From the IMG/VR virus record IMGVR_UViG_2675903366_000018: a DNA stretch of 15,292 bases, one strand, 5' to 3'. Source of the DNA: a virus. Lineage: Duplodnaviria; Heunggongvirae; Uroviricota; Caudoviricetes. A program made the position numbers and the translations under genes. Below are positions 1,582 through 15,292 of the stretch, piece after piece; the first letter of the stretch is position 1; every line of letters begins with the position of its first letter. The notes under the pieces were generated by a model, which did no database searches, was not told where the DNA came from, and worked only from the letters and a program-made list of their open reading frames with translations.

Positions 1582-1875
1582 TTACGTACGCAGCCGCTCC
1601 GGTTTCTTCCACTGGTAAGTCTTTTTCTCGCTCTCCCGATACATCTCCACGCGGCGACGATATGACAACAACTCCAGAACTCTGATCCGTATGTCGCGCA
1701 TATCCACGCCGTTAAGCTCAATACCATCACGGCGCATCACCTCAGCCACCACACGCGCGTAATTTTCAGCGGTGACAGTTTCCGGCTGCGTGGCCTCACG
1801 TTTGCCTGCTGCCGGGCTGATTCCGGTAACGCGGCGGATTATTTTTAGTAGTTCGGTTTCGCTCATTCTCGTCAT
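1582..1875 (-). CDS. Hypothetical protein (97 aa), translationally coupled to terL
   Basis: ATG at 1873-1875 overlaps the terL TGA stop (1872-1874) as ATGA; charged, non-repetitive composition. No recognisable family by eye. Confidence 0.45.
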   Translation of the reverse strand: MTRMSETELLKIIRRVTGISPAAGKREATQPETVTAENYARVVAEVMRRDGIELNGVDMRDIRIRVLELLSYRRRVEMYRESEKKTYQWKKPERLRT

Positions 1876-3533
1876 ACCCCATCAAACGCCGCAAGCCGCT
1901 CTTTGTGGCTGTCGCTTATATCAAAGGCAAAATCTTCATGCTCTGCCTGGAATGTGCCAAACGCCATCAGCGCCGCAACGCTCGGGTCTATCTTGTTGGA
2001 TGATTTTTTCTTGTTCGGCTTGATATTGGCGTTCGCGTCACTCTGCATCACAACATTACTCATTGACCAGGCCAGCACCGGATCACCACGATGCACAATC
2101 ACCTTCCGGTTAACAAAAACTTCGAACGATTTCGCCGCCGGACTGAAACGAAGGTATGTTTGCGGGAACGGCTCCACCTCAAATCCCGCGCCCTGTAGCT
2201 GCGTCCTCAGGTGCGTGGCGTTCCATGTATCGAAACCCACCAGCCTGATATTGAAATTCTCTGCATCCGCCATGATGTCATCACGGATACGGTCATAATC
2301 AATGCAGTCACCCGGTGTTGTGCGTATCCAGCCCGCCTTTGCCCACTGGCGATAGATGGCGCGGTTTTTATTGGCAGGGTTCTGTAGCTGAAATTCCGGC
2401 AGATAGTGACGGGAAACCAGCATAATCTTTTTACCGACCGGGAAGGCATAGCACACGCTGGAAATATCGCTGGTTGATGATAAGTCCAGCCCCGCGTAGC
2501 ACTCCTGCCCGTATAAATCCGCCTCCGCGAACGTTCCGGCGCACTCCGCCCATGCACCGTTACCCATCCATGGCGTAGCCCCCTGACACCAGATGTTAAA
2601 TCGCTTAGTAAGCATCTCCACCCACTGCGACGGAATACCCCGCGCTTTCTGGATGGTTGAGGCCAGTTTTTCACGATCGACGGAAACATCGATATTGGGA
2701 TTCGCCTTTATCCACATCGCCGGATCGTCAACCTCGCTTTCATCATCCAGCTCGTAAATCAGCACGAACATGGATTCATTCACCTCTTCACCATCCAGTA
2801 TCTGGCAGCAATAGTCATAGTGTTGTTTACAGGCTGAAACAACGTTGCTCCCCGATGTGGTGATGGCAAATAACAGCCCCTCCGGGCGTGCCCCCATTCC
2901 CAGTTCAAGCGCGGAATAAACCCCGTTGTCAGGGTGCAGGTGATATTCATCCACAATGGCGAGACTCGGGTTTGTCCCCTCAATGGTTGCCGCTTTTGCT
3001 GCCAGTGGCTTTAACAGGCTGTTGGTTTTCGGGTGTATCACCTTGTGCGCCTGAATATTTACCCGCTTTCGTAACGGTCGGGATAAAAGGCACATCTGAC
3101 GCGCATCATCAAACACGATCCGCGCCTGATCACGACTCACGGCGGCGGTGTAAATATCCTGCTGCCCGTTTTCCATAACCAGAAACCAGTTAGCCAGGAT
3201 AGCCGCGACCGTGGATTTGGCATTTTTTCGCGGTACTTCAATGAATGCGCTGGTGTATTTGCGCCGTCCGGTGGCCTTAACCTTAAAGCCCAGGATGCAG
3301 GCAAAGGCGAACTGCTGCCACGGCTCCAGCTCAATGGGGCTACCGCGCATTGCGCCTTTTACGTGCGGACACACCCTGGAAAAGGCAATAAACCGCTCCA
3401 CGACCTCCGGATCGAACGTGTAAAGGGGGTTTTCAAGGTCAGAAAAATACCGTTTAACGGCCTGTTTCAGTCGTTTACAGGCCGTAATTTTGCCGTTTTT
3501 TACGCCTTCTGCGTACTCATGCCAGGTGGTCAA
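1872..3533 (-). CDS. terL: Phage terminase large subunit
   Basis: 553-aa ORF; conserved terminase N-terminus (EYAEGVKNGKITACKRLKQAVKRYF), P-loop-like VPRKNAKST and Walker-B-like LAIVDEYH. No ATG near the 5' end; most upstream start is TTG at 3531-3533 behind a purine-rich AGAGGAAGAGGA stretch, overlapping terS by 17 nt. Confidence 0.9.
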   Translation of the reverse strand: MTTWHEYAEGVKNGKITACKRLKQAVKRYFSDLENPLYTFDPEVVERFIAFSRVCPHVKGAMRGSPIELEPWQQFAFACILGFKVKATGRRKYTSAFIEVPRKNAKSTVAAILANWFLVMENGQQDIYTAAVSRDQARIVFDDARQMCLLSRPLRKRVNIQAHKVIHPKTNSLLKPLAAKAATIEGTNPSLAIVDEYHLHPDNGVYSALELGMGARPEGLLFAITTSGSNVVSACKQHYDYCCQILDGEEVNESMFVLIYELDDESEVDDPAMWIKANPNIDVSVDREKLASTIQKARGIPSQWVEMLTKRFNIWCQGATPWMGNGAWAECAGTFAEADLYGQECYAGLDLSSTSDISSVCYAFPVGKKIMLVSRHYLPEFQLQNPANKNRAIYRQWAKAGWIRTTPGDCIDYDRIRDDIMADAENFNIRLVGFDTWNATHLRTQLQGAGFEVEPFPQTYLRFSPAAKSFEVFVNRKVIVHRGDPVLAWSMSNVVMQSDANANIKPNKKKSSNKIDPSVAALMAFGTFQAEHEDFAFDISDSHKERLAAFDGV

Positions 3534-3873
3534 GCTCGTCCTCTTCCTCTGTTTCCGGTGGATTTCTGCGGCGGCTTACCGGGTCAAAACCCAGCAAAGA
3601 AGCCATTTTGATCATTATTCTTTCTGCGTCAGCCTTTGCGCTCAGTGCGGGGTTTCTGCTCTCGCTGCCCTGACTGTTAACAATGCTGAAGCCGCGTGTC
3701 GCAAGGTCTTCGACGGCTTTGCGGTATAGGGAGTAGTTAACGCAATACAGTTCCAGATTGCTCCAGTCGGCGGGGGTAAGGTCTTCCCGCCCGGATAGCT
3801 GGCGCGATTTTTCCTTCCACTGCCTGACCGCGATTTCATCCAGGTAAGCGGGGGCTTTTGGTGGTCTTGCCAT
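3517..3873 (-). CDS. terS: Phage terminase small subunit (P27-family-like)
   Basis: Start taken at internal ATG 3871-3873 (MARPPKAP...), not the 165-aa ORF start. C-terminal GSESRNPALSAKADAERIMIKMASLLGFDPVSRRR matches the P27-family pattern; sits immediately upstream of and overlapping terL. Confidence 0.7.
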   Translation of the reverse strand: MARPPKAPAYLDEIAVRQWKEKSRQLSGREDLTPADWSNLELYCVNYSLYRKAVEDLATRGFSIVNSQGSESRNPALSAKADAERIMIKMASLLGFDPVSRRRNPPETEEEDELDHLA

Positions 3874-4161
3874 GTTCTTTTTTCGCCCAATTATTTTCAA
3901 AAAAATTCCCGTGCACAAAAATTTGAGGAGGCGGTCGGTGTCCGGCATGGACGGTTTCGTCCTGAAAACCTCCCCCACCCCCTCTGACGGCCTCACCAGC
4001 GATTGCGAAAACATTCCATGACCTCGCGGTCACGGTCGGTTAATCGCTTCGCTGTGGTGCGTTCTGTGCGCCCTGTCCTGTTGGCTTTGTGCTCTGTCTC
4101 CTGTGTCTTCCATGTGTCACGCTGCCTTATCAGTCCACGTATCAGCCTGTTTTGCTCCTGT

Positions 4162-4602
4162 TCAGTCATCATCGCCATACATCCAGTCGTTACGGTGTGC
4201 TGCCCGTTCTTCCTGATCGCGATACATGCCCGCCTTACGGTTCGCTTTCGTGGCTGGATCTTCCCGTGTCGTCTTACGGTTGTGGCACGTCTGACACAAT
4301 GCCTGGTGATTCCACTCAGGCCAGAAGAGAACATCACCGCCGCCATTGATGGGGATAATGTGATCCACCACAAAGGCTGGCGTATAAATACCCTCAGCCA
4401 GACAACGCACACATAACGGATTTTTTTTCAGGTACATGGCGCGGTATTTGTCCCACTGTCGGGAATACCCGCGCGCGCGGCGGTGTCCCCGTCTGGCATC
4501 CTCTGCACGCCATGCAGCCCGCCTGTGCTCTTCACACTTGCCGGACTTCACGCGCTTATTACAGCCCGGCTCAGTGCATCGCCTTAATGGTTGCCATGGC
4601 AT
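4162..4602 (-). CDS. HNH endonuclease (phage packaging-associated)
   Basis: N-terminal Cys cluster (CTEPGCNKRVKSGKCEEH) and HNH core (VVDHIIPINGGGD...NHQALCQTCHNRKT). ATG at 4600-4602 overlaps the upstream gene's stop as ATGA. Sits next to terS/terL as in cos-type HK97-like packaging modules. Confidence 0.85.
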   Translation of the reverse strand: MPWQPLRRCTEPGCNKRVKSGKCEEHRRAAWRAEDARRGHRRARGYSRQWDKYRAMYLKKNPLCVRCLAEGIYTPAFVVDHIIPINGGGDVLFWPEWNHQALCQTCHNRKTTREDPATKANRKAGMYRDQEERAAHRNDWMYGDDD

Positions 4603-7069: not shown

Positions 7070-8239
7070 CTAGCCAGCTTTCATTTCCAGAATTTTGATG
7101 GCGTTTGAATCCACCACACCACCGCCCAGATATTTATCCGTGTGGACCTTGTAGAATCCGGGTTCAGTAATGTTGTCCGGTCGGGTGCGAATCCCTGTTA
7201 CATGATCAACGATGAAATAACCACGACTGAAATCGCCAACCGCCAGCGGTGCTTTTCCTGCGCCGATGTCCGGCATGGACTCCAGGCAGTAAACAGGACG
7301 ACCAAGCAACATATCCGGCGCACCTTCTTTAAGGCTGTCGCGCCAGATATAATCGCCGTTCTCATTTTTCAGCTTCTGTAGTGTCCCTGCCGTGCCCGAG
7401 TTCATCACCCAGACGGCATTTTTGCGGTATTTCGCTTTCAGCCTGTAGAGAATGTCGATCAGTTCGTCCGCTGTAATGGCGGTTCCACTTGCCGCTATCA
7501 TTTTTTCAATGGTGCCAAAAGCGCGGGTTTTGTCACTGGTCGCTGCACGGGTGTAAGCCATGAAGCCTTTCGGCTTGCCGTTACCGTCGCCATTAACAAA
7601 ATCATCCTCTTCGGTGCTGGCGAACGTGTCGGCAATTTCGGAGGATAACCAGCCCAGAATATCCACCTCTGAAAAATCCAGAATTTCCTGCGTGGTTTTC
7701 GGGTAGGCGTAGATCGGATTCAGCTTGATGGTTACGCGTTCAATTTTCGGGGTGTTGGTTTCGCTGCGCGCGCTGCCTTCTGTGCCTCTTCCTACAGTTG
7801 CGCCGCCAGTGGAAACCAGTTTCTGAAACTCATTTGATTTTGCGGTCTTCACGGTCGCGATCACGCGCATAACACTGTCATCCTGTAGCTGGCGCATGAC
7901 TTCGCGATCAAGCTCAGGAATTACGGTATATCCGCCATCCCTGCCGCTGTCAGTGCTGGTGGATAGTGATCGCACATCTCCGGTTACGATGTAGTTACGC
8001 AATTCATCAGATGATAATTTCCGGATGCCCGTTCCTGGCTTGCTGCGTTCTTCATCAGCCACAGACTCGAGGCGGGAAATTTCTGTGCCGAGGGAATCGG
8101 CTTTTGCACGCAGTTCATCAAACTGTTTGCCCTCGTCATCGTTCAGGCTACGGTTTTCACTGTCGGCTTTTTCCAGCAGGGATCGCATCTGGTTTTTCAG
8201 GGCGTTTTTTTGCTGGCGGAGTTCGATTAATTTCTTCAT
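7070..8239 (-). CDS. Major capsid protein, HK97 fold, with N-terminal coiled-coil (scaffold/delta-like) region
   Basis: 389 aa; the first ~100 residues are heptad-like and rich in E/K/R/L, followed by a capsid-like domain; ATG at 8237-8239. Followed directly by protease and portal genes. Confidence 0.85.
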   Translation of the reverse strand: MKKLIELRQQKNALKNQMRSLLEKADSENRSLNDDEGKQFDELRAKADSLGTEISRLESVADEERSKPGTGIRKLSSDELRNYIVTGDVRSLSTSTDSGRDGGYTVIPELDREVMRQLQDDSVMRVIATVKTAKSNEFQKLVSTGGATVGRGTEGSARSETNTPKIERVTIKLNPIYAYPKTTQEILDFSEVDILGWLSSEIADTFASTEEDDFVNGDGNGKPKGFMAYTRAATSDKTRAFGTIEKMIAASGTAITADELIDILYRLKAKYRKNAVWVMNSGTAGTLQKLKNENGDYIWRDSLKEGAPDMLLGRPVYCLESMPDIGAGKAPLAVGDFSRGYFIVDHVTGIRTRPDNITEPGFYKVHTDKYLGGGVVDSNAIKILEMKAG

Positions 8240-14053: not shown

Positions 14054-15292
14054 TCAAGAATTTTGGGTGTAAATTCGCGGGGTCATAACAACGATTTTTT
14101 CATCATTGTTCTGGAGAAGCTCGAGACGGTCTACCCATAGATTAAGAGCATCACGTTTTGCATCAAGATAACGGGAGTGGTTATAGACTCGCTGCATCCC
14201 TGGCATCTGGTGGGCTGTAAGCTGCTCGACAATATGCGGATCCACGCCTAAATCGTTCAGCATGGTTGTAAATGTGTGCCGGATGTCATGCAACGACCAG
14301 GGGGCTTGATTAATGCGTCTGTGTGCCGTTCTTCCGTACTCTGATACGGATGATTGCCCTTTCAGTTCTCCAAGCAATAAGCCCGTGTGCCTGTTCTTCT
14401 GCACCAGCTTCGTGACGAACGGCAAAATGCTTTCCGGTATTGGCCTGAATATGGCGACCTTCGTTTTGCTGTGCTCCTTCGGTACTGTCCAGAGCATTTC
14501 TTTAAAATCCCACTCCTGCACCTCAGAGCGCCTTAGCTCAGTGGTACGGCATCCAAAAACAATCAGGAGGCGAATTAGGGCGCTGTAGTATGGCGGGAAT
14601 ATTTTGTCATCCAGGGCGCGGAGTAATTCCCCAAGCTCCTTATTTGTTAGTACGCGCTCGCTCACTTCTGCTTTTTTTCCCACATCACCGACAACCATAT
14701 CATCAAGAACGTTGCTGATTGCGTATCGTCGTTTTCGGCAGTACTTAAGCGCCTGTTTGCATACCTGTAGCAAAAATCCGGCTGATACCGGATTACGCTT
14801 AGCAAGCTGGTCAAAACAGGCCAGCCAGTGGCGTAGCTCGCATTTTTCCAGTGGCATAGCGCCAATCTGGCTAATTATGTGTTTATTGATCCGGCTTTTC
14901 AGTGATTCGTAGTCAGTGCGCTTTTCCTTTGCGTACGATTCAAGCCAGTAAGTGAGCGCTTCCTTAACCGTCACGGGGGCTAACGCATCCTGTACAGCAT
15001 GATTAAGTTCATAGCGCGGATTTTTCCCCTCAGCCAGCCAGGCGCGACACTGTGCCGCTTTTTCCCTGGCAGCTTTCAGGCTCAGATCGGGATAATTGCC
15101 CAGCCTCAGACGTTCCGGTGATATCTGCCTACCAGTTCCGGCCCTGTAAGTGAAATACCAGGTTAACAGGCCATTGATTGAATGCCTTACGCTAAGGTTG
15201 CCACCATCATTAAAAAAGGTGCTTTTTGTGGTTGGTGATCCGCTTAATTTTCGTAAAAGAGTGTCGCTAAGTCTATGAATTGCCCTGCTCAT
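14054..15292 (-). CDS. int: Tyrosine site-specific integrase (P4-like family)
   Basis: 412 aa; catalytic-domain motifs GCRTTELRR, HDIRHTF (H-x-x-R) and YNHSRY (catalytic Tyr region); ATG is the last three bases of the window, so upstream attachment site and promoter are not visible. Confidence 0.9.
   Translation of the reverse strand: MSRAIHRLSDTLLRKLSGSPTTKSTFFNDGGNLSVRHSINGLLTWYFTYRAGTGRQISPERLRLGNYPDLSLKAAREKAAQCRAWLAEGKNPRYELNHAVQDALAPVTVKEALTYWLESYAKEKRTDYESLKSRINKHIISQIGAMPLEKCELRHWLACFDQLAKRNPVSAGFLLQVCKQALKYCRKRRYAISNVLDDMVVGDVGKKAEVSERVLTNKELGELLRALDDKIFPPYYSALIRLLIVFGCRTTELRRSEVQEWDFKEMLWTVPKEHSKTKVAIFRPIPESILPFVTKLVQKNRHTGLLLGELKGQSSVSEYGRTAHRRINQAPWSLHDIRHTFTTMLNDLGVDPHIVEQLTAHQMPGMQRVYNHSRYLDAKRDALNLWVDRLELLQNNDEKIVVMTPRIYTQNS

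Follow-up and report, generated by a model that had tools for sequence, protein, structure and literature searches.

Phage-inducible chromosomal islands of the capsid-forming kind (cf-PICIs) are satellites that build a capsid of their own and fill it with their DNA by means of self-encoded HNH, TerS and TerL proteins; only tails are taken from a helper (bioRxiv 10.1101/2022.09.08.507074). In the prototype, EcCIEDL933, HNH, TerS and TerL are essential for transfer, and gene 1792, a hypothetical gene, is important (bioRxiv 10.1101/2022.09.08.507074). An HNH gene adjoining the terminase genes is the hallmark of HNH-dependent systems that package from a cohesive-end site (cos) (Kala 2014). Such cos packaging, cf-PICIs as a class and their cohesive ends are already known; the accessible texts of the cf-PICI preprints give no description of where the cos site lies or of the status of the small gene beside it. 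Here we analyse the interval between HNH and terS in an E. coli cf-PICI of the EcCIEDL933 type, carried on a 15,292-nucleotide (nt) stretch of viral DNA (IMG/VR record IMGVR_UViG_2675903366_000018; the whole stretch is called the window). This interval of 288 nt very probably comprises two functional units, a small translated gene and the island's own cos site.

All relevant genes of the window lie on the minus strand. The HNH stop codon is at 4162–4164 and the terS ATG at 3873–3871. A preliminary description had noted a stretch of ~290 bp between the two genes, and its length and coordinates hold. However, the stretch is not intergenic: ~177–186 nt are coding, and only 119 nt (3874–3992) are non-coding. 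The same description had taken the whole region for the likely packaging site of the satellite. A cos site in the HNH–terS interval is supported by the layout of SfI/SfIV, HK97 and cluster E phages and by a break in the assembly of Klebsiella particle DNA, but the part concerned is only the terS-proximal 119 nt, mainly 3889–3987. The interval and its neighbours are made up as follows.

4162–4602, minus strand: HNH endonuclease (zinc ribbon at the N-terminus), nuclease partner in packaging (PF01844, E 1.9e-9)
3993–4178 (PGAP) or 3993–4169, minus strand: small accessory gene (phrog_3173)
3517–3873, minus strand: terS, P27-family small terminase (PF05119, E 3.2e-23)
1872–3533, minus strand: terL, large terminase with ATPase and nuclease domains (PF03354, PF20441; PGAP start 3533)

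The conserved gap and its predicted cos site

The gaps of 49 non-redundant relatives (<93% identical), which belong to Enterobacterales, Aeromonas, Orbales and Pasteurellaceae, were aligned. Conserved blocks alternate with variable segments.

3959–3987, minus strand: block A (G-box), TCAGAGGGGGTGGGGGAGGTTTTCAGGAC, candidate upstream cos element on the right-end side
3943–3958, minus strand: variable spacer of 16 nt, free in sequence but conserved in length (column identity 0.64)
3908–3942, minus strand: block B, GACACCGACCGCCTCCTCAAATTTTTGTGCACGGG, which is GACAC|CGACCGCCTC|CTCAAATTTTTGTGCACGGG (bars mark cuts or predicted cuts), predicted cosN (column identity 0.87)
3937–3928, minus strand: predicted 10-nt cohesive end 5'-CGACCGCCTC, placed by three concordant rulers
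3889–3907, minus strand: block C, AATTTTTTTGAAAATAATT, A/T tract, predicted TerS-binding (cosB-like) site (column identity 0.89)
3874–3888, minus strand: variable leader with the terS ribosome-binding region (column identity 0.66)

In the same sequences, identity at terS codon positions 1, 2 and 3 was 0.88, 0.92 and 0.62, respectively. Blocks B and C are thus conserved like amino-acid-determining positions, far above the near-neutral third positions. The core of block A, GGGGTGGGGG, is nearly invariant. Block A contains the G-rich run on the coding strand that had already been pointed out, which we find as GAGGGGGTGGGGGAGG at 3984–3969. Within one window such a run is unremarkable (a 10-mer with one mismatch occurred in 133 of 200 shuffles), but its conservation is far beyond chance. 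The cos blocks also persist in relatives that lack the small gene. In lineages whose TerS is ≤68% identical to that of the window, block C switches to CTTTTTTCAATAGCAG while block B is unchanged; at window positions 3889–3905, TTTTTTTGAAAATAAA of the other relatives is replaced by CTTTTTTCAATAGCAGTAA. This switch is compatible with block C being the TerS-specific part of the site, which it may be, but shared ancestry could also explain it.

The blocks recur at cos sites whose ends have been located. Direct run-off sequencing of SfI particle DNA showed that 10 nt, TGCCCGCCCC, are missing relative to the prophage (PMC3636060), and the SfIV cos is identical to that of SfI (PMC3851460). From the gap in the run-off reads from both SfI ends we infer recessed 5' ends, that is, 3' overhangs. 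The SfIV junction runs from the HNH stop through CCAGAGGGGAGGGGCGGG, 31 nt and GGAC|TGCCCGCCCC|ATCGTTTTTTTATACCCGCGAAAAATGAAATTTAA to terS; on the coding strand of the window, G-box TCAGAGGGGGTGGGGGAGG is followed by 31 nt, GGACAC|CGACCGCCTC|CTCAAATTTTTGTGCACGGGAATTTTTTTGAAAATAA and terS. Block B aligns with GGAC|TGCCCGCCCC|ATCGTTTTTTT of SfIV, and a Klebsiella cf-PICI carries CACCCGCCCC at the position of the SfIV 10-mer. The neighbouring proteins are related as well: the window HNH shares 39% identity with SfIV orf54 HNH (E 3e-19), and the two TerS proteins share 36% (E 6e-21).

Two further phages with known ends show the same arrangement. HK97, with a 10-nt 3' overhang, has G9, 32 nt, GAC|CGCCGCCAAA| and a T7 run at +24..+30, and its gp74 is 36% identical to the window HNH (E 3e-17). 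The cluster E mycobacteriophage Quink has TCAGAGGGGGTGGGGGTGG, 32 nt and GAC|CGCTTGTCA at the end of its record; the 9-nt 3' extensions described for cluster E phages are 5'-CGCTTGTCA (PMC4472888). In the Streptococcus thermophilus cos phage P7134, GGGGTGG and GAC|CCCCGCCCCC follow each other downstream of its HNH. When the gap was aligned locally to such junctions and compared with dinucleotide shuffles, the score was reached by 0 of 500 shuffles for Quink, 2 of 500 for HK97 and 4 of 500 for SfIV. By its position between a terminal HNH and terS-terL, its conservation and the shared anatomy, the gap groups with the HNH-dependent cos sites of the HK97/SfV type. From these comparisons, the predicted cos site lies within the gap, at ~3889–3987.

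Within block B, three independent rulers agree on the boundary 3937/3938: the 31–32-nt spacing from the G-box, the alignment with the SfI overhang, and the AC|CG boundary, as in HK97 and Quink, at 39 nt. The nicks are predicted, with an uncertainty of a few bases, at 3937/3938 on the plus strand (CG|GT) and at 3928/3927 on the minus strand. Measured from the anchor, the base that interrupts the G-box, the AC|C boundary lies at 39 nt in 31 of 41 relatives and in SfIV, and at 40 nt in Quink. AC|CG stands at the boundary in 27 relatives and AC|CA in 13, and the 10 nt between AC| and |CTCAAATTTTT are constant in most lineages. After the predicted cohesive end come CTCAAATTTTT and then, ~23 nt downstream, the A-tract block T7-GAAAATAA. 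The T7 run of the window thereby occupies +23..+29 from the predicted top-strand nick, and in the cf-PICI family the T-run starts 31–32 nt past the boundary.

The complement of AC|CG is CG|GT, the sequence at which the cos-adjacent phage HNH nickases of gamma, E2, phi105, Bth193 and Lrm1 were measured to nick (PMC3592412); the HK97 and Quink overhangs imply exactly this nick on the bottom strand. HNH has been suggested to cut one strand and TerL the other (PMC11331095). By analogy, HNH and TerL may divide the strands in this way at the window site, a hypothesis for the island, and the cohesive end CGACCGCCTC is probably a 3' overhang.

The assembly of particle DNA from a relative breaks in the same gap. 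LR881103 (vB_KppS-Ant) was obtained from a lysate on K. pneumoniae DSM 30104 by Nextera XT sequencing and SPAdes assembly (PMC8006926). Its order is terS, terL, ..., int, ..., capsid, ..., HNH, small ORF (open reading frame), and it is the excised, circularised and cos-cut form of a cf-PICI. Over 300 nt, each end matches the island in the chromosome of that strain (K. pneumoniae ATCC 13883) at 100% identity. The record stops at ...GGTTTTCAGGAC and restarts at ACGAAAAGG...; the 69 nt missing in between are GAACACGAGGGCGCCAGGCAC-CACCCGCCCC-CTCAAATTTTTTCGCACGGTGATTTTTTTGAAAATAAA, so that it ends 21 nt short of the predicted 10-mer and resumes 38 nt beyond it. The probability that a random break would hit the 119-nt gap is <1%. 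True ends in tagmentation libraries typically lose a few tens of bases. vB_KppS-Ant is the packaged linear form of the Klebsiella cf-PICI KpCIDSM30104, whose DNA is reported to form concatemers via its cohesive ends (bioRxiv 10.1101/2025.02.11.637232).

LR881103 was published as a filamentous single-stranded DNA prophage of a novel genus, under the name 'Escherichia phage vB_KppS-Ant'. Directly after terL it carries a 2.3-kb gene annotated as 'tail length tape measure protein' (2036–4333 of the record), which is odd for a tail-less satellite.

Several observations weigh against the site and nicks as placed here. The nicks are placed by alignment and by rules of spacing, and in some relatives the distance departs by 1–4 nt from the usual 39 nt. 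The polarity of the SfI overhang follows from the 'gap' result and is not stated in PMC3636060. A low-complexity G-run supplies much of the alignment score; the gap does not align significantly with the junction of the Gordonia phage Mcklovin (92 of 500 shuffles), and the HK97 alignment is significant only with milder gap and mismatch costs, stricter penalties giving 427 of 1,000 shuffles. At the level of sequence, Quink and SfIV therefore provide the strongest case, and the comparison with HK97 is mainly architectural. HK97 gp1 TerS has no detectable sequence homology to P27-family TerS, so the analogy between the TerS sites is architectural only. Contigs from IMG/VR and metagenomes run through the site without end pile-ups: scans with block C and with blocks B and C (IMG/VR and one metagenome scan) returned >190 loci, none of which ends at the predicted nick. 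The IMG/VR terS loci are mostly proviruses from isolate genomes. Searches for contig ends at cos were uninformative in IMG/VR and in metagenomes alike. One contig starts 25 nt upstream of TCAAATTTTT, the closest to the predicted nick; we judged this a coincidence.

It is possible, though somewhat unlikely, that the cos site lies in the gap and is cut elsewhere, in the spacer (3943–3958), at a second ACCG (3934/3933) or at CTCAAA|TTTTT. The Ant assembly leaves a range of 69 nt for the ends, ACCG occurs twice in the window, in overlapping copies at 39 and 43 nt from the anchor, gapped alignments with HK97 and Quink put their top-strand ends opposite CTCA|AA|TTTT, and overhangs vary between 9 and 11 nt among phages. 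Against such a shift stand the agreement of the three rulers on 3937/3938 and the 10-nt distance, constant in most lineages.

Far less probable is that the blocks serve transcriptional or translational control of terS-terL, as a promoter, UP element or mRNA structure, and not cleavage. The A/T-rich block C does lie immediately upstream of terS, and G5:C5 pairing is possible between blocks A and B. However, the coding strand of the gap has no sigma-70-like promoter (the single promoter hit is on the opposite strand), and a -35 element at TTGAAA would leave no room for a -10 element and a ribosome-binding site before the ATG. No terminator and no Rfam match were found in the gap, and RNAalifold with a column-shuffle control returned only a 5-bp G:C helix of -3.2 kcal/mol with no covariation. 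Conservation thus concerns the DNA sequence itself and its spacing, which is what sites of protein binding and cleavage should show, and the same blocks and spacing occur at the physically mapped ends of SfI, HK97 and Quink. Two further candidates were set aside: a terminator-like hairpin inside the small ORF was judged to be due to chance, and a core resembling an integration host factor site (TCAANNNNTTR) in CTCAAATTTTTG is not in register in Xenorhabdus relatives. Many PICIs and Staphylococcus aureus pathogenicity islands use TerS-directed headful (pac) packaging. For this island, such packaging, with the conserved region acting as a pac or TerS recognition site without precise cohesive ends, is highly improbable given the HNH gene adjoining the terminase, the linear Ant assembly with a defined break in place of a circularly permuted contig, the cohesive-end concatemers of KpCIDSM30104 and a capsid sized for one genome.

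The small gene between HNH and terS

The preliminary description had also listed a possible 61-aa ORF at 3993–4178. Its translation, MAMMTEQEQNRLIR..., is as given there, with 61 aa counted from the PGAP start at 4178 and a TGA stop at 3995–3993. PGAP annotates the ORF in E. coli SM107 as hypothetical protein WP_073999567.1, and Prokka calls it too. The true start is likely ATG 4169, giving 58 aa (MTEQEQ...) and an 8-nt overlap with the HNH stop; a Klebsiella relative is annotated with the same overlap, which is of the ATGA type and conserved in relatives. The small gene is translationally coupled to HNH.

The protein matches phrog_3173 over its full length (residues 1–57 of 57 profile positions, E 2.6e-28), as do three far more divergent types of the ORF from relatives. 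Among 57 distinct IMG/VR relatives we found four sequence types, all of which keep an open frame of 50–58 codons, with M(T/N)E(Q/K)(E/D) at the N-terminus and R(D/E)RE(V/L/I)xE(C/A)FRNR at the C-terminus. At informative distances, the pairwise ratio of nonsynonymous to synonymous substitution (dN/dS) is 0.07–0.4. Judged by the profile match, the frame and C-terminal motif kept in four divergent types, and dN/dS, the small ORF is a genuine gene that is conserved and subject to purifying selection. A cos site and a real gene had been put forward as alternatives, with translation of the ORF as grounds for rejecting the former; this opposition does not hold, because both are found side by side.

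The idea that the ORF is spurious and the whole 288 nt a non-coding packaging region has next to no probability left: the weak ribosome-binding site and the lack of any Pfam or NCBIfam match speak for it, whereas the profile match, the constrained frame, the conserved overlap with HNH, the calls by both annotation programs and the complemented transfer defect of what is probably the corresponding EcCIEDL933 mutant speak against it.

That mutant is of gene 1792; its transfer defect is partial and was complemented (bioRxiv 10.1101/2022.09.08.507074). The EcCIEDL933 capsid is gene 1786. Because the order of capsid, protease, portal, two connectors, HNH and small ORF is conserved, counting along it from the capsid most probably makes the small gene 1792.

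AlphaFold2 predicts two helices (residues 3–33 and 45–55; mean predicted local distance difference test score, pLDDT, 77), and we regard the product as a putative basic two-helix protein. A fold search against the PDB gave no match, and every database homologue is annotated 'hypothetical'. The protein has one Cys and one His and no paired motif, which sets it apart from zinc-ribbon proteins (CxxC, CxxxC or HxxC). Since the gene adjoins the G-box and the mutant phenotype is a partial defect, a role as helper of recognition or cleavage is suggested, as a hypothesis.

The small ORF is absent from Xenorhabdus, Citrobacter and Aeromonas relatives, in which HNH and terS are 130–160 nt apart. Three E. 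coli copies carry a CGA to TGA change at codon 42 and three others an internal deletion, and the cos blocks are intact in these disrupted copies. This suggests that the gene is dispensable in some backgrounds. It is a facultative accessory and not a core packaging factor.

The island and its relatives

The window is 100% identical to a ~15-kb island of E. coli SM107 inserted beside thiM, and of the 5,426 complete genomes of E. coli, 491 contain a similar region. The minus-strand genes are, in order, integrase, DUF927 primase-like gene, capsid, protease, portal, two head-tail connectors, HNH, small ORF, terS and terL. This is the layout of cf-PICIs, with EcCIEDL933 as their prototype (bioRxiv 10.1101/2022.09.08.507074). 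A cf-PICI is recognised by a length of ~10–18 kb, an integrase, a replication module, its own capsid, protease, portal and connectors, HNH-terS-terL, and the absence of tail and lysis genes (bioRxiv 10.1101/2025.02.11.637232); the PGAP annotation of the identical SM107 locus agrees with this description. Two further landmarks are:

14054–15292, minus strand: integrase
7070–8239, minus strand: capsid

Directly after terL, and overlapping its stop, lies a 97-codon ORF (1582–1875, minus strand; PGAP hypothetical) that matches phrog_1561, of unknown function, at E 2.4e-47. This ORF may likewise belong to the packaging operon as a conserved gene.

Some genomes hold more than one such module. The chromosome of E. 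coli Z1324SEC0014 (NZ_CM135183.1) has five copies of the HNH–terS region, which implies several cf-PICI-like islands in one genome. Xenorhabdus genomes carry many HNH-cos-terS modules (6 loci in X. innexi, 5 in X. kozodoii and 3 in X. mauleonii), none with the small ORF, and draft contigs often end at the module. A gut metagenome contig of cf-PICI size (ERZ1023299.94, 15,632 nt) has a coverage of 454, with the cos blocks internal and its ends not at cos; it is possibly an induced or replicating island.

Packaging model and comparison with known systems

We propose the following sequence of events. After induction, excision and replication, TerS would bind the A-tract of block C, on the terS side, which would be packaged first. 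TerL and HNH would make two nicks 10 nt apart within block B, with HNH plausibly nicking the plus strand at CG|GT (3937/3938) and TerL the other strand (3928/3927). The product would be linear DNA with 10-nt 3' cohesive ends, its left end formed by CTCAAATTTTT-terS and its right end by HNH, the small gene and the G-box. Packaging would run from the former through the att junction to the latter. Lying upstream by three helical turns, on the side that is packaged at the end, the G-box could act as a further recognition element. The reality of the small gene, the conservation, the protein homologies, the geometry in common with mapped cos sites and the assembly break in a relative are shown; in this model we infer by homology the exact nicks, the polarity of the overhang, the assignment of strands to proteins and the roles of the G-box and the small protein.

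Tentatively, HNH-dependent terminases from Actinobacteria, Firmicutes and Proteobacteria might share a common 'cos grammar': a G-box, three helical turns, a strand-specific CG|GT nick, a second nick 9–10 nt away, and TerS docked to an A-tract roughly two turns beyond. It would cover HK97, SfV-like phages, cluster E mycobacteriophages, S. thermophilus Moineauvirus and cf-PICIs. If this were true, one strand would belong to HNH and the other to TerL, which would explain the need for an HNH partner, and the phrog_3173 protein could be an optional adaptor that tunes recognition of the G-box. The cross-phylum spacing rule and the CG|GT boundary suggest, as a concrete hypothesis, how HNH and TerL might share the cutting; they are the only parts of this work that might interest specialists beyond the cf-PICI family.

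Within the family, cos is the cis-element that makes packaging exclusive to the satellite's own DNA, while tails are borrowed, sometimes across species. A site located to ~100 bp with a predicted 10-nt cohesive end would allow packageable cosmids or cargo vectors for cf-PICI particles to be designed, and lets the specificity of satellite cos versus helper cos be examined. Packaged cf-PICI DNA also becomes recognisable in virome data, the GenBank 'phage' vB_KppS-Ant being one such molecule. The small ORF deserves to be retained in annotations as an accessory packaging gene.

Among the closest systems are the packaging modules of EcCIEDL933 and KpCIDSM30104 (Alqurainy et al. 2022 and He et al. 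2025, preprints), which the window matches in family, gene order and size. The island of the window is a different allele, with a TerS ~84% identical to the EDL933 and Klebsiella types.

A small gene between HNH and terS has been tabulated before, in the phi105, B. subtilis W23 and S. aureus Y74T prophages (Xu & Gupta 2013, Table 2), the same position as in the window. Small HNH-adjacent proteins were proposed there as a possible specificity or regulatory subunit (Xu & Gupta 2013). Those proteins are zinc-ribbon proteins, whereas the window protein, predicted to consist of two helices, contains only one Cys and lacks a zinc-ribbon motif. In HK97 we noticed an unannotated 67-codon ORF (record 39373–39576; phrog_10282, E 1e-47) that overlaps the HNH stop. 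It lies between gp74 and the G-run of cos, in the position of the window small gene, but is unrelated to it in sequence.

HK97 and the window thereby share the order HNH, small ORF, G-run, GAC-type boundary, 10-nt overhang (predicted in the window) and T7 A-tract. The minimal TerS site of HK97 was mapped to +15..+29 by electrophoretic mobility shift assay and cryo-electron microscopy (PMC11331095); the HK97 T7 run lies within this site, and that of the window takes nearly the same place. In the cluster E phages Quink and Mindy, the G-box TCAGAGGGGGTGGGGG(T/A)GG is virtually identical to that of the window and stands 32 nt before GAC|CG; Quink TerS, like the window TerS, is a PF05119 protein. 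Cluster E differs in its actinobacterial host, its 76-kb genome, a terS 1.1 kb inside the left end and another overhang sequence, and gp151, which precedes cos in Quink, gives no match to a Pfam HNH family at E ≤ 0.01.

The Shigella phages SfI, SfII, SfIV and SfV are close in anatomy as well. Unlike these 38–40-kb phages, the window element is a 15-kb tail-less satellite whose ends are predicted; it has an extra small gene between HNH and the G-box, and its spacer and A/T-tract sequences differ. The core CCCGCCCC of the Sf overhang TGCCCGCCCC is present in the Klebsiella cf-PICI, where the window has CGACCGCCTC. The Sf phages and the window each have a P27-family TerS, a TerL and a terminal HNH, and in both the order is HNH, G-box (CAGAGGGG.GGGG.GG), 31 nt, GGAC|, a C-rich 10-mer, a T-run, an A/T tract and terS.

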